DNA of 64,000 bases from Bacilli bacterium. Its GTDB lineage: Bacteria; Bacillota_I; Bacilli_A; RFN20; CAG-826. The stretch is from the NCBI GenBank assembly GCA_017447165.1, contig JAFSOD010000004.1, positions 564,478-628,477 on the forward strand. Direction: 5' to 3'. The position numbers and the translations under genes were made by a program. Below the pieces are notes generated by a model that was not told where the DNA came from, searched no databases, and was given only the letters and a program-made list of their open reading frames with translations. Positions 9,926 through 45,762 of this stretch are shown one piece after another. Position 1 is the stretch's first letter; each line of letters opens with the position of its first letter.

Positions 9926-9943
9926 ATAAGATTGGAGAAAGAT

Positions 9944-10729: not shown

Positions 10730-10732
10730 TGT

Positions 10733-12704: not shown

Positions 12705-12705
12705 T

Positions 12706-21044: not shown

Positions 21045-21134
21045 ATATAATGCACTTTTTATAGCACTCATCATCATTGAGTGCTTGCTTCTTCTTCTAT
21101 TTAAAATAAATAGCAGCAAATGGGGAAGATAGGT

Positions 21135-22667
21135 ATGAAAAGAAAAGCACTCAAACATTTTATTTGGCTTGGCCTTTTAGCAATTAGTTTAACCGGTTGT
21201 GGAGCCGAACCGGTAGTGGGCCCACAAGGGGAGCCTGGTAAAGATGGCGTTTCTATTGTTTCGGTTACTTTAACTAGTTCAAGCGAAAATATTGACACAT
21301 ATACAATCACTTATTCTGATGATCACACATCAACTTTTAATGTTACCAATGGTGTTGATGGTGAATCTATCCAGGGTGAACCGGGTAAAGACGGACATAC
21401 TCCAAACATTACTATCAGCGAAGATGGATATTGGATCATTGATGATGTAAAAACATCAATCCTTGCCAAAGGCATCCAAGGTGAAGCGGGTGTTTCTGTT
21501 GTATCAATCGAATTATTATCCTCGGTTGGTTTATTGGATACATATCAAATTAATTATAGCGATGGAACTCATTCAACATTTACAGTTACTAACGGTAAAG
21601 ATGGTGAATCTATTCAAGATAAACCTGGTAAAGACGGACATACTCCAGAGATTATTATTGGTGAAAATGGTCATTGGTTTGTTGATGGAGTGGATACCGA
21701 AATAAAAGCACAAGGCCCACAAGGCCCAATTGGTCCACAAGGTGAACCTGGCAAAGATGGGTCTTCAATTATAACTGCAAATGGTGTTCCAGAAGATAAT
21801 CTAGGTAAAAACGGTGATTCTTATATCGATTTAGATAACTGGAATTACTATATTAAGGAAAATGGTGCCTGGAATTTAAAAGGTAATATCAAAGGCCAAG
21901 ATGGTAGCAATGGATCTAACGGCAAATCTGCGTATGAAATATATTGCGAAGCCCATCCTGAATATGAAGGTGATGAAACTAAATGGCTTGATGATTTAGT
22001 TAATGGCAATCTTGGAGATAAACAAATTCATACAGTGACATTTAATTCTAATGATGGAACACCTGTTGAAACTCAATTTGTGTTACACGGAGAAAAAGCG
22101 GTTAAACCAGTTTCTCCGACTAAAGAATATTATGTTTTCTCTGATTGGGTTGATGAAAATAATGATCACTGGGTATTTAATGGATTTAGTATTACCTCTG
22201 ATATCACCTTAAATGCAGTCTGGAAACAAGAATATGATTATAGTAAAATCGTGATTAACGAAGTTTGCTCTAAAAGTAGAAAAAGTTTCTTAGATAAATA
22301 TGGAGAAGAAAGTGACTGGATTGAACTCTATAATAGTGGATCTGGTGATATCAATTTAAAAGGGTGTGGCTTATCTAAATCAGTAGACGATCCATATGCT
22401 TTAGAATTTGATAACTGCATTTTAGAAGGAGACAGCTATTTAGTTGTTGTGGCTTCTGGTAGAAAAAATAAATTATATGAAAATGAGTACCATGCCCCAT
22501 TTACTCTTTCTAATAAAAAAGAAGGAAACTTATATTTCACTTCTCCTTTTGGTGTTAGTGATTCAATTAGTTATCCAGCTTTAAAAGATGATATTTCTTT
22601 TGGTGTTCTAGGTGATGAATTAACTATGCTTCAACCTTCAGCAGGAAGAAACAATGAAGAAGTGTAA
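21135..22667 (+). CDS. surface lipoprotein with collagen-like G-X-Y segments in two ~80 aa tandem modules, a Listeria/Bacteroides-type repeat and a lamin-tail-like domain
   Basis: Lipobox LLAISLTGCGA. GPQGEPGKDG, GEPGKDGHTP, DKPGKDGHTP and GPQGPIGPQGEPGKDG triplet runs. Tandem repeat at 21229..21480 and 21480..21780. HTVTFNSNDGTPV...YVFSDW (flg_new/List_Bact-like). VINEVCSK...DWIELYNSGSGDINLKGCGL (LTD-like). A GGGGAAG RBS precedes the ATG at 21135. Confidence 0.6.
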   Translation: MKRKALKHFIWLGLLAISLTGCGAEPVVGPQGEPGKDGVSIVSVTLTSSSENIDTYTITYSDDHTSTFNVTNGVDGESIQGEPGKDGHTPNITISEDGYWIIDDVKTSILAKGIQGEAGVSVVSIELLSSVGLLDTYQINYSDGTHSTFTVTNGKDGESIQDKPGKDGHTPEIIIGENGHWFVDGVDTEIKAQGPQGPIGPQGEPGKDGSSIITANGVPEDNLGKNGDSYIDLDNWNYYIKENGAWNLKGNIKGQDGSNGSNGKSAYEIYCEAHPEYEGDETKWLDDLVNGNLGDKQIHTVTFNSNDGTPVETQFVLHGEKAVKPVSPTKEYYVFSDWVDENNDHWVFNGFSITSDITLNAVWKQEYDYSKIVINEVCSKSRKSFLDKYGEESDWIELYNSGSGDINLKGCGLSKSVDDPYALEFDNCILEGDSYLVVVASGRKNKLYENEYHAPFTLSNKKEGNLYFTSPFGVSDSISYPALKDDISFGVLGDELTMLQPSAGRNNEEV

Positions 22668-23307
22668 GTATGATATTGAAGATCCAATTGTTTGGAAGGC
22701 TGGCGAAATTGAAGAAGGATATCAAACAGATATCTCTTATTTCCAAGAGGCTAGAGCCACAATTAACTCCGGTATCTTATCCGAGGCAGGATATGAAAGA
22801 TTCTGCAACAAATATTCTGTTTCTAGTTTTGTAGACACAATCATCTATCATTCTTATATTGATCATTATGACTATAGTATGTTCTCGTCTAATAGTTCGA
22901 TGTGGAGAAGTAGAGATGTTGATGAATCTTTAGAAAAGTCGGATGGATTAATAAGATTTATGCTTTATGATACTGATTTTTCATTAGGAACCCACTTTGA
23001 TTATACGCACTATCCAAAGTTAATTAGTGATTTCAAAGCAAGTTCAACACTCAAATATTTATTTGAAAATGCACAATTCCTCGAACTACTTAAAACAAGA
23101 GTGGCAGAATTAATACCACAATTTTCTAGCCAAGAATGTCGCGATATGGTGACCAATTATTTCAATAAGATTGAACCATTAATTCAACAAAATAATATTA
23201 GACATTATGGCTCAGTTGGTACTTCATACGTAAAAATGTGGAACACGTTAATCGAGTATTTAGAGAATCGTGGATCTTATTATTTAACATTCATTGAGGA
23301 ATTATAA
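22654..23307 (+). CDS. hypothetical protein; may be the frameshifted or translationally coupled continuation of the upstream lipoprotein
   Basis: The start overlaps the upstream stop by 14 nt. No domain recognised. Confidence 0.35.
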   Translation: MKKCKYDIEDPIVWKAGEIEEGYQTDISYFQEARATINSGILSEAGYERFCNKYSVSSFVDTIIYHSYIDHYDYSMFSSNSSMWRSRDVDESLEKSDGLIRFMLYDTDFSLGTHFDYTHYPKLISDFKASSTLKYLFENAQFLELLKTRVAELIPQFSSQECRDMVTNYFNKIEPLIQQNNIRHYGSVGTSYVKMWNTLIEYLENRGSYYLTFIEEL

Positions 23308-23704
23308 AAATAGATTAATGTTTGTAAAAATGCCTTCAGATTAGGTGTATTGTGCTTTCATGATAGAATAAAAACTATCAGAAAGCAAAAATGGGATGTG
23401 ATTCCTCTTTTCTCTTGAAAACCATAGGTGGCTCATGCTTATTCTTTATATTGGCGAAGGTTTTATGTTTGTTGGACAAATACTCGCCTTAGACAAGCTA
23501 AGGTTTAAAATATGTTGGATGGTTTAAAATAACCATGAAAGGCATTGTGTTTTAGAGTGAAGTTATGTTAAAAAATACTATCTTAAAATAAAACACAGAA
23601 TTATATATTAATAAATTAATATATATGCATATTGATAAAAAATGGAATATTTTGATATTTTTGCTTGATTTAACAATTATATTTGTTATACTACAAGAGA
23701 TTTT

Positions 23705-24310
23705 ATGAGAAAGAGTCAAAAGTTTTATTTAGTAATTAAGACAATAATAGGGATATTTGGGGCTTTTATAGGTATGTTAGTGTGCCTACCTTTAATTTAT
23801 TGGTGGATATTTATTGTCAATTTTATTGTCACTAAAGGACATCCATTCTATGTTCAAAAAAGATTAGGAAAACATAAAAAGGTGTTTGGATTAATCAAAT
23901 TTAGAAGCATGAGAGTTGATGCGCCTGAAGTTGCTCCTAGCGATATTAGTGAAGATACTCAAAAGAGTATGGAAACAGGATTTGGCAAGTTCTTAAGAAG
24001 AACATCATTAGATGAGACACCTCAACTATTTAATATATTAATATGCCAAATGGCATTCATTGGTCCTAGACCAGGTGCTGCGCATAATGAAGAAGAACTA
24101 GTTAGACTTAGGGAAGCATATACTCCTAATGCGTTTGATGTTAAACCAGGTTTAGGAGGATGGGCTCAACTAAAGAATAATAGAGCCCATGATCCTGAGG
24201 CTAAAGCTTTATTAGATCATGAATATGTTAAGAATATATCTTTATGGTTAGATATGAAGATATTTGTCTTAACAGTCTTACATTTATTCGGTAGTGGAAA
24301 GGGGAAATAG
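23705..24310 (+). CDS. undecaprenyl-phosphate sugar phosphotransferase, small monotopic PglC/WcaJ-C-terminal type (Bac_transf); initiating transferase
   Basis: One N-terminal TM, then KRLGKHKKVFGLIKFRSMRVDAPE...DETPQLFNILICQMAFIGPRPG...PGLGGWAQLKNNR, the Bac_transf catalytic core. Confidence 0.85.
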   Translation: MRKSQKFYLVIKTIIGIFGAFIGMLVCLPLIYWWIFIVNFIVTKGHPFYVQKRLGKHKKVFGLIKFRSMRVDAPEVAPSDISEDTQKSMETGFGKFLRRTSLDETPQLFNILICQMAFIGPRPGAAHNEEELVRLREAYTPNAFDVKPGLGGWAQLKNNRAHDPEAKALLDHEYVKNISLWLDMKIFVLTVLHLFGSGKGK

Positions 24311-24424
24311 TTCCTCTTTTCTTTTTTTATGCTCTTTAACTTATGTTGCTATAAAAACGATTGGTGGCTCGTATTTGTCCTTAAGTGTTGATAAGTGTTG
24401 CTTTGTTTGCTAGACAAACACTCG

Positions 24425-24680
24425 TCGCATAGGGGAGATAGGCTTTATTGGACCTAGACCATTAATTGATAAAGTTGATGACCACATTACCATTGAGATG
24501 AGAAAACAAAATAGTTCTTTAAACTAGTTCCTGGCATTAGTGGATATGCGCAGATAAATGGGCGTATTGATATACCTCCTGAGGAGAAGGCCATATTAGA
24601 TGGGTTCTACTATGAACATATTTCTTTATGGTTTGATACTAGAATATTCATTATCACTTTTTACAAACATTATATTTAAG
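24425..24680 (+). pseudogene. degenerate, frameshifted 3' remnant of a second, divergent sugar-phosphotransferase gene
   Basis: Frame 1 gives GFIGPRPLIDKVDDHITIEMRKQNSSLN*. Frame 3 continues PGISGYAQINGRIDIPPEEKAILDGFYYEHISLWFDTRIFIITFYKHYI*, a Bac_transf C-terminus. There is no start and a frameshift. A terminator-like hairpin follows at ~24700. Confidence 0.55.
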
Positions 24681-24818
24681 AAAAAACAAACCTAAAAGTG
24701 AACAAGAAGGGAAATAGAAATCCTTCTTTTTTCACCTATGGTTTGTTTTTGATATCATAATATAATTAAATAGACTATTTTTAAAATGCGACATCCAATA
24801 TGATTAAGGAGATTGTTT

Positions 24819-25445
24819 ATGTATAGTTATCTTTTAAACAAAGAATTAAGGAATGAATTAAGAATGTATTGCGAGGAGAAGATTTTTTTATTGCAAAAAG
24901 AAGTAAGCGAATATTTTACATTTTCATTCAAATTAATTGGGAGTGGTGATAATCGCTTAATGACTATTAACGGAAACAACAAATCGATAGATTTGGATTA
25001 TAACATTGTTATTCAACGCGATAAAAAACAGCTCATTGGGGAACCAGAGCAGATTAAAAAAATATTTATGAGAGCATTCAAAGATGTTTGTGGTCGTGAC
25101 ACCAAAGTGTCTGACTCTACACAAGTGATTACTTGTAAGGTTGGAAAAATTGATGGGTATGATTTCTCGTTTGACATCGCTATATTCGTGGAAGGGAATG
25201 ATGGATTTATTTATAAACTTATTAACGACAAAAAAACAATACCATCGAGATATGTATGGAATAGAATCCCGAGTTCTAAAGATTTCAATTTCAAGTTTTC
25301 ATATTTAAAAAGAAATGGGCATTGGGAAGATATCAAATCCTTATATTTAAAAAAGAAAAATTTGTATTTAACTAGAGGCTCAGATAAAACGTCTTTTTCA
25401 ATTTTAATTGAAACCGTGAATGAAATTATGCAAAAGATGGAATAG
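24819..25445 (+). CDS. Pol-beta-superfamily nucleotidyltransferase (minimal NTase/SMODS-like)
   Basis: hG[GS]-x9-13-DxD motif LIGSGDNRLMTINGNNKSIDLDYNIVI and a third acidic residue in YDFSFDIAIF. An AAGGAG RBS lies 7 nt before the ATG at 24819; the track start at 24813 is a TTG. Confidence 0.5.
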   Translation: MYSYLLNKELRNELRMYCEEKIFLLQKEVSEYFTFSFKLIGSGDNRLMTINGNNKSIDLDYNIVIQRDKKQLIGEPEQIKKIFMRAFKDVCGRDTKVSDSTQVITCKVGKIDGYDFSFDIAIFVEGNDGFIYKLINDKKTIPSRYVWNRIPSSKDFNFKFSYLKRNGHWEDIKSLYLKKKNLYLTRGSDKTSFSILIETVNEIMQKME

Positions 25446-25448
25446 CTT

Positions 25449-26126
25449 ATGATTGATTATGACAAATTCTTTTCAATTATAGATATTGATGAGAGCGAGA
25501 AAGAATCCGCTAAAGAATACATTGCTTTAAGAGGGTTGCAGGAACACATCGATATGGCAACATATTTATCGTCATTTCTTGCAGCAAGGAAACCAACATA
25601 TAAGGAAGTTGCAACAGCATTTAGATACGATAAGAGAATAAGAAGAATTCTATATAAATATATAGGCTTATTAGAAGAGATGTATCGTGCATACATTTGT
25701 AACAATTTTAATAACATCAAGCAATTAGGATTAAAGACCAGCAAGCCATTATTTCAATATATTTCATTGTCTCTATTTAGTTCTCTCGTTAATATAGTGT
25801 GGTCACTAGATGAAAACCATAAAAAAGAATTATTTGAAGGCAAGGCAGTTCTTAAAAAGAATTTAGATGCTCTTGTTACTTTACGAAACGCAATAGGACA
25901 CAATAGGACAATTATCAATTACCGAGATTATAAAGAAGCAACATTAAGCACTGGAGAGGTCGGAAATTCTTTGTTAATTAATATAAAAAATATGTTGGAC
26001 TTTTTGCCGTCGGAAATTAGAAACAAATGCATTAAAGAAACTAATGAAGCAAATAGAAGCGGGACAAAGAAAATAAAAAACCAAGTAGATTGGGCGCTTA
26101 TTTCAATGCTTGTTATTAAGTTATAA
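25449..26126 (+). CDS. Abi_2 (AbiD/AbiF-like)/HEPN-family protein
   Basis: Rx4H HEPN motif in VTLRNAIGHNRTI. Upstream FRYDKRIRRILYKYIGLLEEMYRAYI resembles the Abi_2 family. Starts 4 nt after the NTase gene. Confidence 0.5.
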   Translation: MIDYDKFFSIIDIDESEKESAKEYIALRGLQEHIDMATYLSSFLAARKPTYKEVATAFRYDKRIRRILYKYIGLLEEMYRAYICNNFNNIKQLGLKTSKPLFQYISLSLFSSLVNIVWSLDENHKKELFEGKAVLKKNLDALVTLRNAIGHNRTIINYRDYKEATLSTGEVGNSLLINIKNMLDFLPSEIRNKCIKETNEANRSGTKKIKNQVDWALISMLVIKL

Positions 26127-26202
26127 CGTATAAACAAATTGTTTAAAATGAAAATAGAATTGTTTATAAACTTTTTTGTGGTTTATAATTAAACCAATCA
26201 AT

Positions 26203-27234
26203 ATGCAAAGAAAAAAATATCAAGTATTTACGCCAGAGGCAGTAGTTGAAAAAATGCTGGATCTTTTAGGGTATAAAGGCGAATTAATTATTAATAAAAG
26301 AATTATTGATATTTCCTGTGGAGATGGTGCTTTTTTGGTTTCGGCCGCTGAAAGATTAATTGCTGAATGCAAAAACAAGAATTTGACAACAAAAGAAATC
26401 ATGGAAAAGTGTTCGCAAAACATTTGCGGTATTGAAATTGAAACTGAATATTATAAAAAATGTATTAAACGCCTTAATGAAGTTATTAAAAAGCACTTTA
26501 AAAAGTTATACATTAAATGGAAAAACGTAAATAACGGCGATGGACTTTTACACTCAGAGGATAATTATGATTTTGTTGTTGGCAATCCGCCTTATATTTC
26601 ATATAAAGATATGTCAAGCGAACAAAAAGAGTATCTTAGGAACAACTTTTTAAGTTGCAAGCAATACAGATTTGATTATTCGTTTGCTTTTATCGAAAAA
26701 AGCCTTAACATTTTGTCTGATCAAGGCAAAGGATGCATTATTTCCCCTATTAATATGTATAGGATTAAATCTGGAATTGGAATAAAAGAATTAATCCGTC
26801 CTTATCTTGATGTTATAGTTGATGTTACAGAAGATAACATTTTTCCAAGAGTATTAACGAACCCTGTCATTTCTGTTTTCAGCAAAACAAAAAAAACCAA
26901 TGAAATTGTTTTGTTAAAGCGCGATTTAGCTCCAAGGAAATTGCCAAGGGAAACGTTCGAAAACGACATCAACTTGTTTATAAACGTCGGATCGCGTCGT
27001 TTTGGAGATTATTTTTCGGTTCACAATGGTGTGGCGACTTTGTATAACGAAGCATTTATTGTTAATAGCGATAGTGATCTTGAATCAGAAGTATTAATGA
27101 ATGCTAGAAGTCCGAAGTTTAGCAGATTCAATTTGAATAAGAAAATTATTTTCCCTTATTTGCACTCCAGTGGCACAATAAACAAAATTGATGAAAAAGA
27201 TTTTTTTGAAAAATATCCAAACTGTCCAAATTGA
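26203..27234 (+). CDS. N6-adenine-specific DNA methyltransferase (gamma-class, Eco57I/TaqI-like)
   Basis: Motif I IIDISCGDGAFLVSAAE and motif IV VVGNPPYISYK in gamma order. A TATAAT box sits 13 nt upstream of the ATG at 26203; the track start at 26176 is a TTG. Confidence 0.75.
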   Translation: MQRKKYQVFTPEAVVEKMLDLLGYKGELIINKRIIDISCGDGAFLVSAAERLIAECKNKNLTTKEIMEKCSQNICGIEIETEYYKKCIKRLNEVIKKHFKKLYIKWKNVNNGDGLLHSEDNYDFVVGNPPYISYKDMSSEQKEYLRNNFLSCKQYRFDYSFAFIEKSLNILSDQGKGCIISPINMYRIKSGIGIKELIRPYLDVIVDVTEDNIFPRVLTNPVISVFSKTKKTNEIVLLKRDLAPRKLPRETFENDINLFINVGSRRFGDYFSVHNGVATLYNEAFIVNSDSDLESEVLMNARSPKFSRFNLNKKIIFPYLHSSGTINKIDEKDFFEKYPNCPN

Positions 27235-27604
27235 TCATATTGATTCATCTGAGCCAAAAGACAACACGTTAAAAAATTTGGCACCGGCATGTTTTGATTG
27301 TAATCAAAAGAAAAAAGACATTTGTGACAAACATTCACTTGCTTCTATTATAAATCCATATAATTCTATACATAATGTATTTCAAAGGAATGATGATTAT
27401 AGCATTTGCATAAAAGATGGTTACATAGATAATGAAGATGTTAGGGTGTTTTTTGAAAAACTTAAGCTTGGATCTCAAATTAAAAGAATTGATTATCTTC
27501 TATCGTGTATTCGCTCAATCAAAGATAAACAAGAAAATAGATTTATTAAATCTTGTTTGTCTGATATATATAATTCACTTCTAGACAAAAGAATAATGAT
27601 GTAA
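27191..27604 (+). CDS. HNH-family endonuclease domain protein. Its 5' end overlaps the MTase 3' end in another frame, so it may be a frameshifted C-terminal domain of the MTase
   Basis: QIDHIDSSEPKDNTLKNLAPACFDCNQKKKD is an HNH core (His-...-Asn-...-CxxCN). No RBS was found. A 44-nt frame overlap contains a T7 run (27201..27207). Confidence 0.45.
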   Translation: MKKIFLKNIQTVQIDHIDSSEPKDNTLKNLAPACFDCNQKKKDICDKHSLASIINPYNSIHNVFQRNDDYSICIKDGYIDNEDVRVFFEKLKLGSQIKRIDYLLSCIRSIKDKQENRFIKSCLSDIYNSLLDKRIMM

Positions 27605-27649
27605 GTCCAAACTGTAAATCATACTCTCATACGTTTTAGTTAAACAAAT

Positions 27650-27917
27650 GGCTTTTATTGGTCCTAGACCAGGAACTGCTAAAATCTGAGTGAGTCAATT
27701 AGACTTAGAGAAGCATATACTCCTAATGCATTTGATGTTAAACTTGGATTAAGTGGATGGGCACAACTCAAGAATAAGAGAGCACACAACCCAGAAAATA
27801 AAGCTAAATTAGATCTTGAATATGTAAAGAATTTATCTTTATGGCTAGATATTAAAATATTTGTGTTAACAGTATTTCGTTTATTTGGTAGTGGAAAGGG
27901 GAAGTAATTCCTCTTTT
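27650..27917 (+). repeat. direct duplicate (~85-90% identical, frameshifted) of the last ~250 nt plus terminator of the sugar-transferase gene at 24058..24326
   Basis: atggcttttattggtcctagaccagg...gcatatactcctaatgcatttgatgttaaac...ttatctttatggctagatat...ggtagtggaaaggggaagtaattcctctttttt parallels ATGGCATTCATTGGTCCTAGACCAGG...GCATATACTCCTAATGCGTTTGATGTTAAAC...GGTAGTGGAAAGGGGAAATAGTTCCTCTTTTC. The copy has stops and frameshifts. Confidence 0.7.
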
Positions 27918-27997
27918 TTAGTGATCTAGAATTTCTATTTAATAAGGGTCAATATGTTACGCTTAATTATTATAGATAGTCATGATATCATTCTCTT

Positions 27998-28936
27998 ATG
28001 ATACCAAACGAATTTAAATATTTTTGTCAAAACGAAATGCATCTACCTTACGCAGACGATTCTTGCGTTACATCAGTTAAGAGCAGTATTTTTAGTTGCC
28101 TTATTCATGATAGCTGTTATTTCAGCAACGACATTAAAAAATCAAATATCATAGCGAATTGTATTTTTATTTTTTTATTGGATCGACCATTCTACAACAG
28201 ATCTGATTATTGGTATTTTTATTATGAAGAAAATAATACACCAGGTAACGGACGCCGCATTAATACATATCAGTTATTTCTTAAATATCCAATAAATGTT
28301 ATAGGCAAAACAGATTTATGCTTAAAACTTATTGGCTTGCACCTTGGAAATATTTCGAAAGACATTTCAAACACTTTTATAGAAAGACATTACCGTATTT
28401 TTTTACCAGAAGATAAACTCACTGGTTATTACACAATGTTAGATTTCTTGGTTCAACGCGGATTAATTTTTAATTATAAGCTTACTGTTGAAGGGTGGAA
28501 AAGATTTGATGAAATAACAAACAAGAACACTTCATCAAATCAATTGTTTATAGCAAGCCAATTTGAAGGATTCGATGAAATAATTGGTGTGGTTAAAGAC
28601 TCTGTTATAGAGTGTGGCTATTCACCAGTTTACATGAAAGATCACCAAACGAATAACTATATAATGCCTGAGATTTTTTCTTTAATAGATAATAGCAAAG
28701 CTGTTATCGGAGAAATATCATCAAATAATAATGGTGTATATTTTGAAATTGGTTATGCAAAAGGCAAAGGAATAGATGTTATTTTGATATGCAAAGCTCA
28801 GCGAGATGATAGCGGAAAATTAATAACTAAAACACATTTTGATGTTTCTCAAATTTCTATTATTTACTATGACGATAAAGAAGATTTAAAGAAAAAACTA
28901 ACGTTTAGAATCGAAAATACAATAAGCAAGAGTTAA
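27998..28936 (+). CDS. hypothetical protein with a C-terminal nucleoside 2-deoxyribosyltransferase-like (SLOG/Rossmann) domain
   Basis: The C-terminus QLFIASQFEGFDEIIGVV...NYIMPEIFSLIDNSKAVIGEISSNNNGVYFEIGYAKGKGIDVILIC resembles the NDT-family core with its catalytic Glu (E[LI]GYA). N-terminal 180 aa unrecognised. Confidence 0.4.
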   Translation: MIPNEFKYFCQNEMHLPYADDSCVTSVKSSIFSCLIHDSCYFSNDIKKSNIIANCIFIFLLDRPFYNRSDYWYFYYEENNTPGNGRRINTYQLFLKYPINVIGKTDLCLKLIGLHLGNISKDISNTFIERHYRIFLPEDKLTGYYTMLDFLVQRGLIFNYKLTVEGWKRFDEITNKNTSSNQLFIASQFEGFDEIIGVVKDSVIECGYSPVYMKDHQTNNYIMPEIFSLIDNSKAVIGEISSNNNGVYFEIGYAKGKGIDVILICKAQRDDSGKLITKTHFDVSQISIIYYDDKEDLKKKLTFRIENTISKS

Positions 28937-29046
28937 ATAGCGTATCAACTAATGTTTGCTTTTTAGCATAAATTTCATACATCTTTAAATATAATGTTTT
29001 ATAGAATTAGGTGCCATTTTGTCACAATAGTTATATAATAGTGAAC

Positions 29047-30450
29047 ATGACACTAAAAGAATTAAGAAAATTAAAGAATCTAACACAGTTAGAAGCATCT
29101 GAGATTACAGGTGTACCACTCCGCTCATATAAGCGTTTAGAAAGTGATGAGAAGTATGTTTCATCACTTAAATATAAACAAGCATATTCTATATTAAAGG
29201 GCCATAGTGGCACTTTTATTGATGATATTAAATTATCATCTAAAACTATTTCTGTTGCGGGTACTGGCTATGTCGGTTTATCTAATGCGATTATCTTATC
29301 GCAACATAATAAAGTATACGCAGTAGATGTAGTTCCTTCTAAAGTTGAACTAATTAACTCTAAGAAATCTCCTATAGTAGATAAAGAGATAGATGAGTAT
29401 TTAGCTACTAAGGAATTAGATTTAGTGGCAACATTAGATGGTGATAAGGCTTATAAAGAATCTGAAATAGTGATTATTGCTACTCCTACTAACTATGATA
29501 GTGTGACTAATAAGTTTGATACCTCTAGCGTAGAATCTGTTATTGAACAAGTTAAAAGAGTGAATCCTAATGCTTGGATCATTGTTAAATCAACAGTGGG
29601 TGTTGGCTTTACTAGATATGTTAGAGAGAAATATAACTATGACAAGATATTATTCTCTCCAGAGTTCTTAAGAGAAGGCAAAGCCTTATATGATAACTTA
29701 TATCCATCTCGTATCGTGGTGGGTGTACCAGAAAAAGTAGAACCTTATTTATCTAAAGCAAAAGAGTTTGCTGCTTTATTAAAACAAGGTGCACTTAAAC
29801 CTAATGTTGATGTGCATATCTTAGGATATACAGAAGCAGAGGCTGTTAAGTTATTCGCTAATACTTATTTAGCGCTTAGAGTCGCATATTTTAATGAATT
29901 AGATACTTTTGCCCAAACCAAAGGTTTAGATACCTTAGATATTATTAAAGGAGTATGTGGAGATCCTAGAATTGGTGATTTCTATAATAATCCATCCTTT
30001 GGGTATGGAGGATATTGCTTACCTAAAGACACTAAAGAGTTAAGAGCGAACTTTGAAGATGTACCAGAAAATCTTATTTCTGCGATCGTGGAATCTAATA
30101 GAACTAGAAAACAATTTATTTGTGATGATGTATTAAGAAAAGCGGGATATAAGAATGATGGTAAAGACGATATTACTGTTGGTATATATAGACTTACCAT
30201 GAAAAGTGGTAGTGATAACTTTAGACAATCCTCTATTCAAGGGGTGATGAAACGCTTACACGCGAAAGGTGTGAGAATAGTTATTTATGAACCAACACTT
30301 AAAGATGAAGAATTCTTTAACTGTAAGGTTATAAAAGACTTTGATAGCTTTAAGTCTATGAGTAAGGTGATTATCGCTAATAGATATGATTCATCTTTAG
30401 ATGATGTTAAAGATAAAGTCTACACAAGAGACTTATTAAGGAGAGATTAA
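29047..30450 (+). CDS. ugd: UDP-glucose 6-dehydrogenase with an in-frame N-terminal XRE-type helix-turn-helix extension
   Basis: [19 protein letters not shown] (NAD-binding) and the catalytic [14 protein letters not shown] motif. The N-terminal 60 aa [31 protein letters not shown] are HTH_XRE-like. The ATG at 29047 is preferred over the track GTG at 29011. A TATAAT box lies 8 nt upstream, suggesting a leaderless mRNA. Confidence 0.75.
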
Positions 30451-30451
30451 C

Positions 30452-31477
30452 ATGAGCAGCAAAAAGGCCTTCGTTATTTTATCTTTTGTTGGGTTTGTTT
30501 CTTTGTGTGGACTTGTTATAGCTGACATTTGCTTACATTTTTTAAATAACATAGATTCGTTGATTATTCGACTTTTAGAGTTGATTTTTGGTTGTTTAAC
30601 ATCCGCATCAATTTCTTTAACGGTATCATTTTCTAATAATATAAAACAAACAGTAAAGTCTAATTCTGGCACAATAACAAATATTACATATAACCATTCG
30701 CCAATATCCGATCTTGGTCTTATGCTTCCAACATGCACTCCGGTCCAATTAAAGAACGAATTAATTAAGGTTGGAAATGACCTTGAAATATTGAAAAAAG
30801 AGAACGTAGAAAATATTGTCAATTTAGTGTATGAAAGAATTAAAGAAAGCGACTCGATTCATCCAATTGACTTGAACTTTGTGTTAAAATACATTGACTG
30901 TGCATCTACTATTTCAGATAAAGATATTCAAAAAATATGGGCTGAATTACTTGTTTCGAAAGTGATCGATGGAGTGACAACATCAAAAAGGCTACTTGAT
31001 ACTATAAAAAATCTATCTTCCTATGAAGCGAAATTGTTTGAAAAGGTTGCCATACTTTGTACACCCGAAGGTGTATTATTTGAAAATTTTAAAGAAGATT
31101 TTTCTTTTGAAGAATTATCTACTTTGACCGAAGCTGGACTCATTAAACCACACGATTTATTGACTGATACATTTCATCTTGCACCCAGAACCAACAAAAC
31201 TGTTCTCGTTAAAAGTGACTCTATTGTTATTTTAGGCTCAAATGATTCTGAAAAAGAAAAAGAACTATCATATTCTTGCTCGATGTTAACCACGGAAGGT
31301 ATTATATTAAAGAAAATATTAAAGCTAAAAATTGATGATAGTAGTATGATAAAACTTGCTTTAGAAATGAAAAAAGTTGCTTCAAGAGAGGGTGTAAAAA
31401 TATCTGCCCACAGCATAAATTTCACAACCCAAAATGGTTTGAATTATAAACTTGAAGATTTGATTGGTAATAAATAA
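30452..31477 (+). CDS. hypothetical protein with N-terminal hydrophobic segments, inserted between ugd and the epimerase
   Basis: N-terminus AFVILSFVGFVSLCGLVIADICLHF...FGCLTSASISLTV followed by a ~250 aa soluble region with no recognised motif. Confidence 0.4.
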   Translation: MSSKKAFVILSFVGFVSLCGLVIADICLHFLNNIDSLIIRLLELIFGCLTSASISLTVSFSNNIKQTVKSNSGTITNITYNHSPISDLGLMLPTCTPVQLKNELIKVGNDLEILKKENVENIVNLVYERIKESDSIHPIDLNFVLKYIDCASTISDKDIQKIWAELLVSKVIDGVTTSKRLLDTIKNLSSYEAKLFEKVAILCTPEGVLFENFKEDFSFEELSTLTEAGLIKPHDLLTDTFHLAPRTNKTVLVKSDSIVILGSNDSEKEKELSYSCSMLTTEGIILKKILKLKIDDSSMIKLALEMKKVASREGVKISAHSINFTTQNGLNYKLEDLIGNK

Positions 31478-32499
31478 TGTATATTTTAGTCACAGGTGCA
31501 GCGGGTTTTATTGGTTCATTCCTAGCCAAGAAATTATTAGAAAGAACTGATCATGAGATTGTTGGGGTTGATAACCTTAATGACTATTATGATGTGTCTT
31601 TAAAAGAAGAAAGATTAAAGATGTTGTCTCCTTTTAAGAACTTTAAGTTCGTTAAAGGCGATATATCAGATAAAGCATTTATCGATAAATTATTTGAGGA
31701 ATATCGTTTTGATATTGTTGTTAATTTAGCGGCGCAAGCAGGGGTGAGATACTCTATCGATCATCCTGATGTTTATATTAATTCCAATATTATTGGATTT
31801 TATAACATATTAGAAGCTTGTAGATATCATATGCCTAAACATTTAGTGTACGCTTCTAGTTCTTCTGTATATGGAGGAAACACTAAAGTTCCATTTAGTA
31901 CAGAAGATAAGGTAGATAATCCAGTTAGTTTATATGCGGCTACTAAGAAATCTAATGAATTATTAGCCCATGCTTATTCTAAGTTATATAACATACCTAC
32001 TACTGGATTAAGATTCTTTACAGTATACGGCCCAATGGGTAGACCTGATATGGCGTATTTCTCATTTACTAATAAACTTATTAAAGGAGAGACTATTGAG
32101 ATCTTTAATTATGGTAACTGTAAAAGAGATTTTACTTATGTAGATGATATTGTGGAAGGCATTATCAAGGTTATGGGTAAAGCACCTTCTAAAAAAGATG
32201 GAGAAGATGGATTACCTATTCCTCCATATAAAATCTATAACATTGGTAATAATAACCCTGAGAACTTATTAGACTTTGTTGAGATATTGTCTGAAGAGTT
32301 AGTAAGAGCAGGAGTATTACCTAAAGATTATGATTTTGAATCTCATAAGAAATTGGTGGCGATGCAAAAAGGTGATGTCCCTATTACTTACGCAGATACA
32401 TCTGATTTAGAAAGAGATTTTGGATATAAACCTTCTACATCTTTAAGAGACGGATTAAGAAGATTCGCTGAGTGGTATTATTCCTATTATATTAAATAG
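31477..32499 (+). CDS. UDP-glucuronate 4-epimerase (NAD-dependent epimerase, Cap1J/WbnF-like)
   Basis: MYILVTGAAGFIGSFLAKKLL...VDNLNDYYDVSLKEERL...YASSSSVYG...YAATKK is the typical GlcA/GalA epimerase subfamily sequence. Confidence 0.8.
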   Translation: MYILVTGAAGFIGSFLAKKLLERTDHEIVGVDNLNDYYDVSLKEERLKMLSPFKNFKFVKGDISDKAFIDKLFEEYRFDIVVNLAAQAGVRYSIDHPDVYINSNIIGFYNILEACRYHMPKHLVYASSSSVYGGNTKVPFSTEDKVDNPVSLYAATKKSNELLAHAYSKLYNIPTTGLRFFTVYGPMGRPDMAYFSFTNKLIKGETIEIFNYGNCKRDFTYVDDIVEGIIKVMGKAPSKKDGEDGLPIPPYKIYNIGNNNPENLLDFVEILSEELVRAGVLPKDYDFESHKKLVAMQKGDVPITYADTSDLERDFGYKPSTSLRDGLRRFAEWYYSYYIK

Positions 32500-32521
32500 C
32501 AATTACTTAAGTTAATTATTT

Positions 32522-32550
32522 GCCCATATTATTTATATGGGCTTTTTTAT
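32522..32550 (+). terminator. rho-independent terminator after the epimerase gene
   Basis: gcccatat-tattta-tatgggc followed by tttttt. Confidence 0.6.
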
Positions 32551-32678
32551 AAATATCAAAAGACTAGTTCTTAATTTAATATTGGTATCTATTTTAAAAT
32601 AACTAATCTATTGACATAAAAGTGATCTATAATTAAAATATATTTGTTCAAAAAACTTGAACTAACGGAGGTGTTACT

Positions 32679-33836
32679 ATGGTTATCTTGGATTTAAAAT
32701 TAAACAATGTTTTAGGTTTTAAAGACATTCATTTCAATTTTACATATCCGAAGAAATTAAGAAAGAATTCTTTGGGAGAAGAGTGCTTAAAAGGAGTCCC
32801 TAATTTCAGATATAAAAAAGTTAATGTCGTTATGGGTAGCAATTCTAATGGAAAATCATCTTTGGGCAAAACTATCTGGGGGCTCTGTTTATTTTTTCGT
32901 AAAAAAGAAAGTAACAATCTTATTAAGTTGATGTCTGATGGTTCTGATTCAATGAATATATCAATTGATTATGTTTGTGCATCAGAAACTCAAAAATATA
33001 TTTTAAACAGAGTGGCTATCAGAGTGAAAAAAGATGAAAATTTAACTACTGGATACAGTATTAAAATGGATTATGATTGTGTTACCCTTAGAGGTGACGA
33101 CACTTACGAAACAGCCTGTAAAAATTTAGTTAGAAAAATTTATAATTTGGATTATTTAGACTGCTTAAATGCAATTTCCCATTCCGACGGATGGTTTATT
33201 GCAATGCCAATTACTGAGACAGGTTTTGATAAATTTGAATTGGAACTTGAAAAGCCAAACAGAGAACTGTTTTCAAATATATTATTTAAAGTTTTGAATA
33301 CACTTGACCCCAATATTCAGTCTTCTACAGTTAGTAACGAAATTGATGATGCATATATTATCAAATTTGATGATGGAAAAAATACCATTGTCAAATCTGG
33401 TGATCGAATAACTGATATTAGATATTTGTCCAGCGGAACAAAATATGGTTTTATAATTGCAACTGTCATTTATTCAATTGGAAAGCAACATAATGGTTTG
33501 TTTTATATTGATGAGCTTTTTTCTTATGTTGATTCTGATATAGAAATCGCAATATTAAATTTAATGATTTCGCTACTTGGGGATTGCGAGCAACTATTTT
33601 TTTCAACACACAACTCTGAAGTTTTATTACTCCCATATCCTTTACATTCGTTTATGTTTTTAGGGAAAGAAAAAGTCGATGATCAAATTAAGATTAAGAC
33701 CATTTGTGCGTCAGATGTTGAAAAGAGAAATAATGTCGTTGTAAAGAATTTATACGATAATGACTATTTCGATATTTCGCCAGATTCTTCCAGAATTTTT
33801 GAGATTGAGGAGTTATTTGATAATGGGGAACAATAA
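32679..33836 (+). CDS. ABC/OLD-family (AAA_15/21-like) ATPase; first gene of a three-gene operon
   Basis: RecF-like N-terminus ILDLKLNNVLGFKDIHFNF...VNVVMGSNSNGKSSLGKTIW (Walker A). C-terminal LFYIDELFSYVD (Walker B/D-loop) and FFSTHNSEVL (H-loop). A GGAGGTG RBS lies 7 nt upstream. Confidence 0.6.
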   Translation: MVILDLKLNNVLGFKDIHFNFTYPKKLRKNSLGEECLKGVPNFRYKKVNVVMGSNSNGKSSLGKTIWGLCLFFRKKESNNLIKLMSDGSDSMNISIDYVCASETQKYILNRVAIRVKKDENLTTGYSIKMDYDCVTLRGDDTYETACKNLVRKIYNLDYLDCLNAISHSDGWFIAMPITETGFDKFELELEKPNRELFSNILFKVLNTLDPNIQSSTVSNEIDDAYIIKFDDGKNTIVKSGDRITDIRYLSSGTKYGFIIATVIYSIGKQHNGLFYIDELFSYVDSDIEIAILNLMISLLGDCEQLFFSTHNSEVLLLPYPLHSFMFLGKEKVDDQIKIKTICASDVEKRNNVVVKNLYDNDYFDISPDSSRIFEIEELFDNGEQ

Positions 33837-34341
33837 TTTAATTCAGTATTTTGTAGAAGGTGAATGTGAGGAAAAATTTATTAATGTTTTCAAAACCGGC
33901 AGCGATGCTTTTTTAAAGGCTGGTAAAGTTGAAGTTTTGAATCCTGTCAATAAGATTATAACCGAGGCTAGAGCGAGAACTATTAAGCAAAATACAACTG
34001 TTGTTCTTGTATATGACATAGACAAAGGAAATATAGATGTTTTGCTTAGCAACATCAAAACACTTAAAAACCACTCTTTAACAAAAATTATTCACATTCA
34101 GTCAGTAATGAATTTTGAAGATGAAATAGTAAGATCAACTAGTATTAACTCTATTGATGAAATGTTTTCCACGAAAGGAGTGGAAAATTTTAAGGAAAAA
34201 TTTATTGGTCATAAGAATATTAAGTCTAAATTGGAAAAAGTAAAATTTGATAATTCTATTTTTTGGTCTAAAGTCTATAGAAATGGCCAATTTAAGGATT
34301 TCGCAATTAAGGGTTCGATAAAAAACATAAGAAAAGAATAA
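33823..34341 (+). CDS. small Toprim-like domain protein (AriB/OLD-C-terminal-like) that overlaps the ATPase gene
   Basis: Conserved Glu in LIQYFVEGECEEKF and a DxD in VVLVYDIDKGNIDVL, spaced as in Toprim. The ATG at 33823 overlaps the ATPase stop by 14 nt. Confidence 0.45.
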   Translation: MGNNNLIQYFVEGECEEKFINVFKTGSDAFLKAGKVEVLNPVNKIITEARARTIKQNTTVVLVYDIDKGNIDVLLSNIKTLKNHSLTKIIHIQSVMNFEDEIVRSTSINSIDEMFSTKGVENFKEKFIGHKNIKSKLEKVKFDNSIFWSKVYRNGQFKDFAIKGSIKNIRKE

Positions 34342-34368
34342 TCAAAGCGCGGAAAGGAGCAAAACAAA

Positions 34369-34977
34369 ATGGAAAGACATAAAGTGTTTATAAGTTATTA
34401 TCATAAAGACCAGTCATATAAGGATTTGATTTGTGATGTTTGGAATTCTAATCAAGAGTTATTTGACGATTATTCTGTAGGGTTTGGAGACATTGATGAC
34501 ACAAACAAATCTGATGAAACAATTCGCAAAATTATTAGAGATGAATATATTGCTGATGCCACTGTCCTTCTTTTGCTATGCGGCCCTGAAACAAAAACCA
34601 GGAAATATATCGATTGGGAATTACATGCCGCCATGTACAATACAGAAAATAATCCAAAAATGGGCATTGTGGTTATTAATTTACCCAATTCTAGGAATGG
34701 TGTTAGAGCGCCAACGGATCGAGAAAAAGAAATAGTTGCTCCAAACAGTAACTGGACTTCGTTTGACACAAGAAAAGAATTCGAAGAAAGATATCCTTCA
34801 GCGCCATCTAGAATTATTGATTCTTTATACAAATGTCATTCAGATATTACTTTTGTGGATTGGAGCACCATAAATAATAATCATTTGTTACTAAAAGAAT
34901 TAATTGACTATGCTTTTAAAAGAAAAGATGAGATTGAATATGATACATCAGCTACATTGAGGAGAAAAAATAGTTAA
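34369..34977 (+). CDS. TIR-like domain protein (ThsB/DUF1863-like)
   Basis: HKVFISYYHKDQSYKDLICDVWNS...ATVLLLLCGPETKTRKYIDWELHAA follows the ThsB-type TIR-like pattern (F[FI]S[FY]H..D; vLIG.eT..s.wV.wEi..A). An AAGGAG RBS is present. Confidence 0.6.
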   Translation: MERHKVFISYYHKDQSYKDLICDVWNSNQELFDDYSVGFGDIDDTNKSDETIRKIIRDEYIADATVLLLLCGPETKTRKYIDWELHAAMYNTENNPKMGIVVINLPNSRNGVRAPTDREKEIVAPNSNWTSFDTRKEFEERYPSAPSRIIDSLYKCHSDITFVDWSTINNNHLLLKELIDYAFKRKDEIEYDTSATLRRKNS

Positions 34978-35234
34978 TCTATATATAATGACGTATTATC
35001 TATACAAACGTAATTTAAATATTTAGTAAAAAATTTAAAAAAAGAAAGCAAATATATAAGTTTATTGTTCCTACGCTTTTGAGGTTTGCTGTACAAAATT
35101 TATAAAACAAATACTTATAGTGCCAGTAGCACTTTTATTGTTAATAAAAAACCAATATAAATGATTACAAATTAACAAAACATAATTAGCATTTTATCTA
35201 ATTATGATATAATTTGTCGCAAGGGGTTAAAATT

Positions 35235-37046
35235 ATGCAAGCATTAATGTTAGCAGCTGGCTTAGGAAAAAGACTAGCCAAATATACAAAAGATAACACC
35301 AAATGTATGGTGGAAGTCGCTGGTCAAAAGTTAATTGATCGCGCGATTACCGCTATTAAAAAAGCAGGTATTAAAAGATTCGTCATTGTTACTGGATATA
35401 AAGGTGACAATTTAAAGAAATATATTTTAGATAATTATGAAGGCCAATTAGACTTTGTTTTTATTGATAACAAAGACTATGCGACCACCAATAATATCTT
35501 CTCTTTCTATTTAGCCAAAGAAGAATTAAAGAAAGATGACGTTATCTTACTAGAAAGCGATATCATCTTTGATGAAGACTTAATTAAAGATGTCTTAGAA
35601 AGCGAAGACAAAGATATTGTTACAGTCGCTAAATATGAATCTTGGATGGATGGAACATGCGTTACTTTAGATGAAAATAACTGCATTAAAAAGTTCATCG
35701 AAAAAGCTAGATTCCTATATGAATTCATCGATAAATATTATAAGACAGTGAACATCTATAAATTCTCTAAAGAATTTGTGAATAACATCTATATCCCATT
35801 CTTAGAGACTTATATGAAGATGTATGGTCTAAATTGTTATTATGAGACTCCACTTAAATATATTTGTAAATTACCAGAGATCTCCTTTAAAGCGTTCACT
35901 ATGGATGATCGACCATGGTATGAAATCGATGATGCGCAAGATTTAGATATCGCGACTGTCTTATTCTCCAATGGAGAAGATAAACTCAAATTAATTGAAA
36001 AGAAGTTTGGTGGCTATTGGAGATTCCCAGGACACTTAGATTTCTGTTATTTAGTGAATCCATATTTCCCACCTAAAGAAATGGTGGCGAAACTCCAATA
36101 TGAACTTCCAACCCTATTAACTCAATATCCTTCGGGATTATCCGTCCAAAATATGAACGCCGGTAGATTATATAATGTTGATGAGAATCATATCTTTGTG
36201 GGGAACGGCGCAGCTGAACTAATTAACGCGCTAGGACATGTCTCTAAAGGTAAGAAAGTCGCTGTCAATTTACCAGCATTTAACGAATATGTGAGATGTT
36301 TCAAAGAATCAGAGATTATTGAGATCGATAACTCTAAATTTGATTATCAGTTAAATTTATCAGCGATTAAATCGGCGATTGATAAAGCGGATATCACTGT
36401 CATCATTTCTCCAGATAACCCTTCTGGATACATGCTCAAAAAAGAAGAAATCGTAGAACTTGCGGAATACTCTAAAGCCAAAGGCCATAAATTAGTGGTG
36501 GATGAATCCTTCGTGGACTTCGCTAGAGACAAAATTAGATTTACTTTATTAGATGACGATTTTATCAATAAATATCCAAATGTCATCGTTGTGAAATCCA
36601 TCTCTAAATCTTATGGAGTGCCTGGCTTAAGACTTGGTTTACTCGCTACAAGTGACACTAAGCTATTAAAAGAGCTCAAACAAGAAATGCAGGTTTGGAA
36701 TATTAATTCCTTTGCGGAATATTATCTTCAAATCTATCAACTCTTTTCTAAGAGCTACGCTGAAGCGTGTGATAAGATCGTGGAAGCTAGAGAAGAATTT
36801 GTTAGCAAACTCAAAGAGTTTAAAGGATTTAAAGTCTATCCTAGTGAGGCCAACTTTGTAATGGTTGATACTGGAAAAGTTAGTTCTCATGAACTCGCTA
36901 TTGAGTTACTTAATAAATACAAACTCATCATTAAAGACTTATCTAGCAAGCATACTTTTGAAGGCAAAAACTTCATTAGACTCGCAGTGAGAAATAAAGA
37001 AGATAACGATTACTTAATTGACTGTTTAAAAGAAACGCTTAAGTAA
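35235..37046 (+). CDS. bifunctional protein: N-terminal sugar/alcohol-phosphate nucleotidyltransferase fused to a class I/II PLP-dependent aminotransferase/decarboxylase (HisC/CobD-like)
   Basis: N-terminus MQALMLAAGLGKRLAKYTKDNTKCMVEVAGQKLIDRAI is the NTP_transferase G-x-G-x-R motif. The C-terminus has DNPSGYMLKKEEIVELAEY...LVVDESFVDF...SISKSYGVPGLRLGLL, with the PLP lysine in SxSK. An AAGGGG RBS precedes the ATG at 35235. Confidence 0.65.
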   Translation: MQALMLAAGLGKRLAKYTKDNTKCMVEVAGQKLIDRAITAIKKAGIKRFVIVTGYKGDNLKKYILDNYEGQLDFVFIDNKDYATTNNIFSFYLAKEELKKDDVILLESDIIFDEDLIKDVLESEDKDIVTVAKYESWMDGTCVTLDENNCIKKFIEKARFLYEFIDKYYKTVNIYKFSKEFVNNIYIPFLETYMKMYGLNCYYETPLKYICKLPEISFKAFTMDDRPWYEIDDAQDLDIATVLFSNGEDKLKLIEKKFGGYWRFPGHLDFCYLVNPYFPPKEMVAKLQYELPTLLTQYPSGLSVQNMNAGRLYNVDENHIFVGNGAAELINALGHVSKGKKVAVNLPAFNEYVRCFKESEIIEIDNSKFDYQLNLSAIKSAIDKADITVIISPDNPSGYMLKKEEIVELAEYSKAKGHKLVVDESFVDFARDKIRFTLLDDDFINKYPNVIVVKSISKSYGVPGLRLGLLATSDTKLLKELKQEMQVWNINSFAEYYLQIYQLFSKSYAEACDKIVEAREEFVSKLKEFKGFKVYPSEANFVMVDTGKVSSHELAIELLNKYKLIIKDLSSKHTFEGKNFIRLAVRNKEDNDYLIDCLKETLK

Positions 37047-37050
37047 ATTA

Positions 37051-37076
37051 GAGGGAAGAAATTCCCTTTTCTTTTA
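37051..37076 (+). terminator. rho-independent terminator
   Basis: gagggaagaaattccctttt-ctttt. Confidence 0.5.
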
Positions 37077-37119
37077 ATGCTATATATCATTTCTCAATTA
37101 CTTTGATATAATTAGAGAA

Positions 37120-38962: not shown

Positions 38963-38970
38963 GAGGATAT

Positions 38971-39903: not shown

Positions 39904-39904
39904 T

Positions 39905-39937
39905 TAAAAAAACAAGGGTTCAACCCTTGTTTTTTAT
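39905..39937. terminator. bidirectional rho-independent terminator shared by yhaM (+) and the small ORF (-)
   Basis: aaaaaaacaagggttcaacccttgtttttt is a perfect hairpin flanked by an A-run and a T-run. Confidence 0.7.
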
Positions 39938-45760: not shown

Positions 45761-45762
45761 AT

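Follow-up and report, generated by a model that had tools for sequence, protein, structure and literature searches.

Some genomic islands and prophages insert at the 3' end of a conserved gene (a tRNA, tmRNA or sometimes protein gene) and bring with them a new 3' end for it. The core defence hotspots of P. aeruginosa are flanked by core genes (PMC10250203). E. coli hotspot #37 is a defence hotspot with no identifiable mobilization route (PMC10121019), and in other hotspots without mobile-element genes the core genes on the flanks, among them rfb, undergo homologous recombination at a raised level (PMC5635113). We analysed a 64,000-nt stretch of contig JAFSOD010000004.1, called the window below, in which anti-phage genes and truncated copies of an initiating sugar transferase gene lie between the intact transferase gene and ugd, a gene for a UDP-glucose dehydrogenase. 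The transferase-ugd gap is a defence hotspot, and the two gaps next to it likewise carry variable defence genes. Like the core-flanked hotspots, the locus has conserved flanks with an empty state, varied defence systems, no integrase, and a mosaic flanking gene that bears signs of recombination. Unlike them, it has three or more consecutive variable gaps between single polysaccharide genes, and one gap keeps stacked 5'-truncated copies of its left flanking gene. We consider it probable that this is a gene-flanked defence hotspot driven by recombination, and that the transferase fragments are pseudogene scars of repeated replacement. The locus reveals no new kind of mobile element. It is a new and well-documented example of a known hotspot type, in which anti-phage genes accumulate and turn over without mobile-element machinery inside a surface-polysaccharide locus that is itself a likely target of phage selection.

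Relatives of the locus (L numbers) were collected by exact-protein look-ups and homologue searches, and their transferases were 85-97% identical. The blocks of homology between the window and L019, L020, L022 and L107 coincided exactly with the conserved genes, and everything between these blocks differed; flank homology was 76-96%. In L022 the transferase-ugd gap was empty, its 137 bp holding only the terminator, a conserved inverted-repeat element that we call E, and the ugd promoter. This is the empty site that the initial annotation of the window, made from the sequence alone, had proposed to look for. The gap was occupied by AbiH in L020, by a radical-SAM protein and an SLFN-type helicase in L019, by Abi_2, a 496-aa protein and a KAP-type NTPase in L107, and by a Bflower-domain protein with other small genes in L104. 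In the window it holds a nucleotidyltransferase (NTase)/HEPN pair and a restriction-modification-like module. The different contents of the same gap in these four relatives bear out the suggestion that this is a hotspot. On the right, homology to L019, L020, L022, L107 and L024 resumed at 29005-29008 every time.

Defence-type genes also sit between or beside other single conserved polysaccharide genes, where relatives hold different genes or none. The gap between ugd and the epimerase gene holds a DUF2806/Abi_alpha gene in L020 and a DUF2806/Abi_alpha-like gene in the window (30452-31477), nothing in L019, and a protease gene plus a small open reading frame (ORF) in L107. In L013, a locus of the same lineage as the window, this DUF2806 gene is split into 239-aa and 64-aa ORFs (2565-3594), a further sign of ongoing cargo decay. 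Between the epimerase and nucleoside triphosphate (NTP)-transferase genes, the window carries an AAA_21 gene (AbiLi/AriA-like), a 193-aa ORF and a ThsB-TIR gene (32679-34977); L019 has another AAA_21 pair there, and L020 an HTH/M78 set. The left border of the locus holds RES-domain and SLFN-type helicase genes in the window (752-4112), and the NTase/HEPN pair with other genes in L112. With three or more such gaps side by side, the locus is a place to look for new defence genes of this clade.

Table 1. Features of the transferase-ugd region. Positions are those of the window unless a locus is named.
Feature	Position	Strand	Basis
rem0/T0: last ~15-20 nt of a transferase gene plus decayed terminator hairpin, upstream of the intact gene	23378..23412	+	pattern match
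E0: conserved inverted-repeat element, arms GGCTCaTG.. and ..GGACAAATACTCGCC	23412..23505	+	alignment
Intact initiating sugar (polyprenyl-phosphate glycosyl-1-phosphate) transferase, allele A, 201 aa	23705..24310	+	PF02397
T1: intrinsic terminator hairpin, overlaps the transferase stop codon	24296..24321	+	terminator scan; -12.8 kcal/mol, z -3.6
E1: second E copy, between the intact gene and remB	24340..24431	+	alignment with relatives
remB: 5'-truncated (from ~codon 114), frameshifted 3' part of a transferase of a different clade	24432..24690	+	translation, tblastn
T2: long hairpin terminator of remB	24682..24750	+	inverted repeat; -23.9 kcal/mol, z -4.5
c208: compact pol-beta/CD-NTase-like nucleotidyltransferase (predicted), 208 aa	24819..25445	+	predicted fold
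HEPN-type protein (Abi_2/AbiD-like, RNAIGH motif)	25449..26126	+	Pfam Abi_2 1.5e-5, HEPN_RiboL-PSP 2e-4; PADLOC AbiD 6e-5
Eco57I-family N6-adenine DNA methyltransferase, 3'-truncated, 352/467 aa	26176..27234	+	Pfam Eco57I 4e-21, N6_Mtase
HNH endonuclease (PtuB-like), 5'-truncated remnant	27188..27604	+	Pfam HNH 6e-6
Junction of 3336-bp deletion, 3-bp overlap	27219..27221	.	window 100% identical to L002 on either side
remC: 5'-truncated (from ~codon 116), frameshifted 3' part, allele of the resident family	27645..27905	+	alignment, tblastn
T3: terminator hairpin of remC	27893..27918	+	pattern match; -11.5 kcal/mol, z -3.0
p312: lineage-specific cargo gene, weak TIR/nucleoside-2-deoxyribosyltransferase-like C-terminal domain	27998..28936	+	profile matches
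Right conserved flank: ugd promoter/operator (GTGCCATTTTGTCAC...TATAAT) and XRE-HTH::UDP-glucose dehydrogenase gene	29005..30450	+	ATG 29047; Pfam
Restriction-like module	window 26176-27604; L002 12472-17239; L003 13285-13350		
E copies in relatives	L022 9611-9700; L019 13162-13261; L103 8801-8875; L104 8858-8924		

The surface-polysaccharide locus spans ~4.5 to 38 kb of the window. It encodes glycosyltransferases, a Wzy-like polymerase, rml-type sugar-nucleotide enzymes, a DegT aminotransferase, a flippase and LicD, along with a frameshifted LTD/CotH-like protein, Ugd, the epimerase and an NTP-transferase/aminotransferase. The transferase, ugd, epimerase and NTP-transferase genes each have their own promoter or terminator. 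G+C is ~30% across the window, with no compositional break in the region, and the host is an uncultured low-GC, Bacilli-like bacterium of a gut/rumen-type lineage known from metagenomes only. The intact transferase covers the whole PF02397 profile (Pfam, E 3e-49), matches EPS_sugtrans and WcaJ-type models of NCBIfam, and is 97% identical to P0001 of L019. A transferase scan of genome contigs gave a single distant match, from Bacteroidales, at 34% identity. The window holds four transferase 3' ends in a space of 4.5 kb. All features listed by the initial annotation lie at or close to the positions it gave and far exceed what chance would produce. Assemblies made independently from several samples show the same arrangement, as does a second lineage at 5% divergence, so it is not an assembly artefact.

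The initial annotation had noted that the 3' end of the transferase gene and its hairpin recur downstream as a frameshifted repeat, and alignment confirmed this: 24047-24320 recurs at 27645-27917, with 81.8% identity over 274 nt and one gap (85% over an ungapped 219 nt). The downstream copy, remC, is translated as QMAFIGPRPG, a stop and frameshift, and then IRLREAYTPNAF...GSGKGK*; its tblastn match is 80% over 74 aa (E 4e-34). It was found in all same-lineage contigs and in L117/L118. A second fragment, at 24425..24735, had been called a more diverged transferase C-terminal remnant with a similar hairpin of its own. The call of a transferase C-terminal remnant held; a copy diverged from the resident gene and a similar hairpin did not. 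The translation of this fragment, remB, runs GEIGFIGPRP..., through a frameshift, to ...ISLWFDTRIF, and in tblastn searches it had 45% protein identity to the resident transferase (E 1e-8) versus 55-65% to a separate clade, the one of 46-50% identity (E 1e-14 to 1e-17). By these matches remB is a true transferase C-terminal remnant and not a diverged copy of the resident gene. Its hairpin, T2, is longer than and different from T1, and an 85% match to T2 lies 3' of the intact transferase gene in L104. The third fragment was the hairpin-like copy annotated at ~23390..23412. As a stable hairpin it failed, with 23392-23412 giving -4.6 kcal/mol and z -0.7. Nevertheless 23383-23488, which contains T0 and much of E0, matched the transferase 3' end, terminator and E of the empty-site locus L022 (9588-9695) at 76% over 108 nt, and T0 is therefore a real, though decayed, vestige.

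Copies in direct orientation and of similar extent are what a local tandem duplication of the transferase 3' region would leave, if the copies then diverged and cargo was later inserted between them. Such a history is very improbable, given that remB comes from a different clade and that a distinct sequence follows each copy. Nor did remC share an excess of derived sites with its neighbour: its site sharing with the adjacent intact copy was no higher than with other alleles, the counts being 7 vs 9 against L019 and 12 vs 24 against L023. From these counts remC is evidently not a recent copy of the neighbouring intact gene. The nominally nearest allele to remC was that of L023 (86-87%); the site-sharing test for a foreign allele was not significant (12 vs 24, p 0.065), and the claim is held to the absence of recent copying from the neighbour.

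Several partial 3' copies near an expressed gene might also serve as silent cassettes, from which gene conversion would vary the antigenicity or specificity of the expressed transferase. A patch at nt 401-431 of the gene, in which the intact copy matches remC and not L019, is in keeping with this. Within it, site 401 is common to the intact copy and remC only; the two also agree at 402, 411, 412 and 431, but most of those states are seen in other alleles too. The copies carry frameshifts and stops, and they diverge faster than the coding cargo, remC being 91.9% identical between lineages versus ~95% for the whole island. Further, the supposedly expressed copy is itself dead in three relatives. 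The A-type copy of L111 is cut at ~codon 99 and fused behind a CTP-transferase gene, that of L117 begins only at ~codon 35, follows a different CotH allele and contains stops, and that of L069 contains stops. We regard the cassette explanation as extremely improbable.

The initial annotation had proposed site-specific integration into the 3' end of the transferase gene with regeneration of that end. On this view the locus would hold one or more decayed islands, with attB in the IGPRP-coding stretch, that carried a replacement 3' end and later lost their integrase. As in islands of that kind, an intact gene is followed by cargo and by a displaced partial 3' copy in direct orientation, with a short identity at the start of the repeat. 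The order, intact copy upstream and truncated copies downstream, fits the logic of attachment (att) sites, and the visible deletion decay makes loss of a recombinase conceivable. The 17-nt exact identity at the left end of the A/remC repeat, and the starts of remB and remC ~2 codons apart, also speak for it and are taken up below. Unlike such islands, the locus has no recombinase, no constant insertion point, a non-chimeric intact gene, and occupied counterparts without a displaced copy.

As the initial annotation had remarked, no recombinase was visible. Pfam searches found no recombinase domain in 56 window ORFs, a set that left unscanned the ORFs of at least 120 aa at 47748-48182, 55244-55660 and 60137-63313 and those overlapping larger ORFs at 30436-30822, 34470-34832, 45750-46133 and 57297-57707. 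There was likewise none in the undeleted island of L002, nor in L117, which carries the whole island at 95% identity. From 23655 to 24347 the window aligns with L019 without a break, at 95.3% identity 5' of the repeat boundary and 93.1% 3' of it. This homology crosses the putative core and runs 25 nt past the terminator, though L019 has other cargo and no remnant. Because both halves are L019-like and the homology is unbroken, the repeat boundary does not mark a chimeric join in the intact gene, and remC does not share its ancestry with the 5' half.

Cargo boundaries were equally unlike those of a site-specific element. Compared with the empty site, the window has its cargo between E and the ugd promoter, L019 has it between the terminator and E, and L020 has it inside E; L107 has lost E. 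The left limits of homology, at 24309, 24326, 24347 and 24424, show that the boundaries vary within a ~120-nt intergenic stretch, and with boundaries that differ among the window, L019, L020 and L107 there is no common att core across these occupied sites. Against L022, the window insertion (24425-29004) is intergenic, 3' of E, and not in the transferase gene; the transferase fragments in it lie inside the inserted block and are not target duplications. No transferase remnants were found in the occupied loci L019, L020, L104 and L107 or in the empty L022, nor in 80 further metagenome loci with transferase homologues. Among loci outside the window's lineage, 63 had at least 1.5 kb of downstream sequence for this screen, and the second transferase matches in the screened loci were only other full genes or frameshifts. 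Remnants are thus confined to the window's lineage group. The remaining truncated copies start at codons ~35, ~99 and ~195, and a scan of viral contigs found no relative of the transferase, so that nothing points to a phage vehicle. An integron-like cassette array does not describe the locus either, as there is no integrase and E, the sole palindromic element that recurs, has two copies in the window that do not lie at cargo gene ends. In sum, site-specific integration with a regenerated 3' end is not supported, and an island that has lost its integrase is highly unlikely.

The annotation had also placed the NTase/HEPN, methyltransferase and HNH genes between the intact gene and the downstream repeat. 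The position was right, but the methyltransferase and HNH genes proved to be truncated by a 3336-bp deletion. The 274-nt direct repeat that brackets this cargo could make it a cassette that moves without a recombinase: the repeats would recombine to give a circle of one repeat plus cargo, and a single RecA-dependent crossover would insert the circle into a new host's transferase gene. Homologous exchange is evident from the mosaic transferase alleles, and in the window, L117 and L111 remB and the NTase/HEPN module travel together. A cassette of this kind is nonetheless unlikely. The product of such a Campbell integration needs native DNA after the truncated copy, and what follows T3 is unlike both the sequence downstream of T1 and L019. 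The repeats are 82% identical, a poor substrate for RecA, and the bracketed structure was seen in no other lineage; over 5% divergence the arrangement has been stable, with internal deletions only. The implied tie between cargo and flanking duplications also gave way, since the NTase/HEPN pair of L112-L116 is not accompanied by any transferase fragment; the genomic contexts of the pair are several and unrelated. More generally, the stranded 3' fragments might act as portable homology arms, pieces of a widely conserved polysaccharide gene, for recombinase-free homing into the corresponding locus of a new host by RecA-dependent recombination, single-crossover or one-sided. Arms recombining at the gene's most conserved stretch would explain why remB and remC both start just 5' of IGPRP, but we hold this role to be decidedly unlikely.

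The cargo itself seems to have moved independently of its surroundings. The NTase/HEPN genes of the window and L111 are 96.6% identical, the transferase-E-remB stretch is 84.8% identical, and the jump falls at the border of remB and cargo, which indicates recent exchange of the cargo module alone. The transferase alleles are mosaic as well. L020 and L019 differ by 0-3 mismatches per 60 nt after nt 360 of the gene and, before nt 240, by 11-15 in most windows of 60 nt; the transferase gene thus does recombine. Recombination in the flank is read here from mosaic mismatch profiles and the identity jump, not from a formal core-genome test.

Capsule and O-antigen loci can switch serotype when their conserved flanking genes recombine, and fragments of biosynthesis genes may then stay behind as pseudogenes. 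The present locus resembles such loci in that the transferase borders a strain-variable glycosyltransferase region, its alleles are mosaic, and the upstream DNA has been replaced at every truncated copy. The region upstream of the transferase carries different glycosyltransferase, CotH or MBOAT sets in each lineage. Unlike the fragments left by serotype switching, those stranded here interleave with anti-phage genes and not with sugar genes. The five known truncated copies (rem0, remB, remC and those of L111 and L117) have breakpoints at codons ~35, ~99, ~114, ~116 and ~195; all five lack the 5' part and have unrelated DNA on the left side. The window, L117, L111 and L069 have an identical E/remB junction although their lineages are 5-20% diverged, so this junction was made by one old event and inherited.

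We propose that cargo would turn over by the host's general recombination with DNA of related lineages, without a dedicated recombinase, in gaps between polysaccharide genes that tolerate insertions. Several times, an incoming block would have brought its own intact transferase gene and downstream content. The block would replace resident DNA from the left, by way of a homologous anchor in the upstream polysaccharide genes, while its right end would be joined inside the resident transferase gene by an illegitimate or short-homology event. What remained of the old gene, its 3' part with the terminator, would be stranded to the right. Homology-facilitated illegitimate recombination, as defined previously (PMC3240628), has one homologous and one illegitimate end and would strand the distal part of a resident gene in this way. 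Cargo modules would be exchanged separately, by ordinary recombination. The likely order is an ancestor with a C-type transferase gene and p312, then the arrival of a B-type gene with its cargo, and then that of the A-type gene with its terminator and E. Among the contexts retrieved, no intact B-type transferase gene was followed by the NTase/HEPN pair and no intact C-type one by p312. The fallback suggestion of the initial annotation, homologous recombination between transferase sequences, comes closer to these data than its site-specific one. The stack of fragments would be a rare readable record of successive replacements and of their direction.

Several points weigh against recombination-driven replacement as we have described it. 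The donor/recipient pair is absent for every junction, which leaves the illegitimate join and any microhomology to be deduced. The argument from polarity rests on five events, with a two-sided p of about 0.06, and all comparator loci are metagenome contigs. Finally, remB and remC start at most ~2 codons apart, just 5' of the IGPRP-coding stretch, and the left end of the A/remC repeat is a 17-nt identity, ATTGGTCCTAGACCAGG. Together these would resemble a crossover core. The evidence is weak, and the coincidence is still unexplained. The 17-mer encodes the family's most conserved motif, and the chance that some pair of five breakpoints falls as close as those of remB and remC is ~0.3. Clustering of the remnant starts, considered as a non-random feature, was not significant once the copies at codons ~35, ~99 and ~195 were added.

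The undeleted 6-kb cargo of L002 encodes a 467-aa methyltransferase, a 727-aa double-GHKL protein with a BbrUII/HgiDII-like N-terminus, a 195-aa protein, and a 201-aa PtuB-like HNH protein (PADLOC PtuB 1e-7); the methyltransferase is also of full length in L117. The 3336-bp deletion took the methyltransferase C-terminus, the 727-aa and 195-aa proteins and the HNH N-terminus, and the window cargo is evidently a recent 3.3-kb deletion derivative. An intact methyltransferase and an intact nuclease, as in type II restriction-modification, are present in L002 and L117, and both genes are truncated in the window. In L003, L004 and L012 an independent 3510-bp deletion removed the same methyltransferase-GHKL-195-aa-HNH module. 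The module has thus been deleted twice independently in otherwise 100% identical DNA and is intact in other samples and in a lineage 5% diverged, a pattern that suggests recurrent selection against it. A population that has lost a restriction-like module twice is one lead from this locus. A scan of viral contigs with the GHKL protein found no relative.

A second lead is the CD-NTase-like/HEPN pair, which has no family assignment. No family was found for c208 in Pfam, NCBIfam or PADLOC. The AlphaFold2 (AF2) model of c208 had a pLDDT of 91.6, its best Foldseek matches were the CD-NTases CdnB, CdnE and CdnD (E 1e-5, TM ~0.5), and the GSG..DLD..D residues were invariant; the fold is what supports a call of c208 as an NTase. 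The two genes always occurred together and are conserved in L111-L117, and distant relatives of the NTase (29-42%) are present on viral contigs (L119-L125). With a predicted pol-beta NTase fold, a G[S]..D.D..D motif and an adjoining HEPN protein with an Rx4-6H motif, the pair has the features of HEPN/nucleotidyltransferase two-gene modules and may be an undescribed two-gene defence or toxin-antitoxin module. The remaining cargo gene, p312, matched Nuc_deoxyrib_tr (2.5e-4) and DUF4062 (8e-4) in Pfam and a TIR effector in PADLOC (1.6e-5), and it was not found in L019, L020, L022 or L107.

The E element is ~80-90 nt long and lies 5' of the transferase gene or of ugd depending on the lineage; in empty-site relatives it is directly 5' of the ugd promoter. 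The window has two copies only. E0 was aligned with the copies of L022, L019, L069, L103, L104, L111 and L117, and the consensus arms are GGCTCGTrTTTGTC and GACAAAyACTCGCC around a variable loop of ~35 nt. A structured RNA was considered and dropped, because E had no Rfam match even at E<=1, the window copies folded no better than shuffles, and the alignment showed conserved arms with almost no covariation. E could be a protein-binding site.

The ugd product, of 467 aa, has an N-terminal XRE-type helix-turn-helix fused to the UDP-glucose dehydrogenase. A near-palindrome, GTGCCAwwTTGwCAC, precedes ugd in all relatives and overlaps the -35 box, which suggests that ugd may be autoregulated through it. 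In L024, from a rumen metagenome, 6581-13509 corresponds to window 29008-39906 with the order ugd, NTP-transferase, transferase, LPG-synthase-like gene and no cargo. The transferase gene is therefore elsewhere in the L024 locus, and at that point, after the NTP-transferase gene, the window has just a 79-nt spacer with a hairpin (37047-37072) of the T style, not shown to be a transferase vestige. Upstream of the remnants, at 21120-23307, a collagen-repeat/LTD protein ORF of 515 aa overlaps, in another frame, the 217-aa ORF that comes next. Taken as a unit, the two look like the single CotH-type genes (746-978 aa) of L019, L020 and L103, and they are probably one frameshifted gene.

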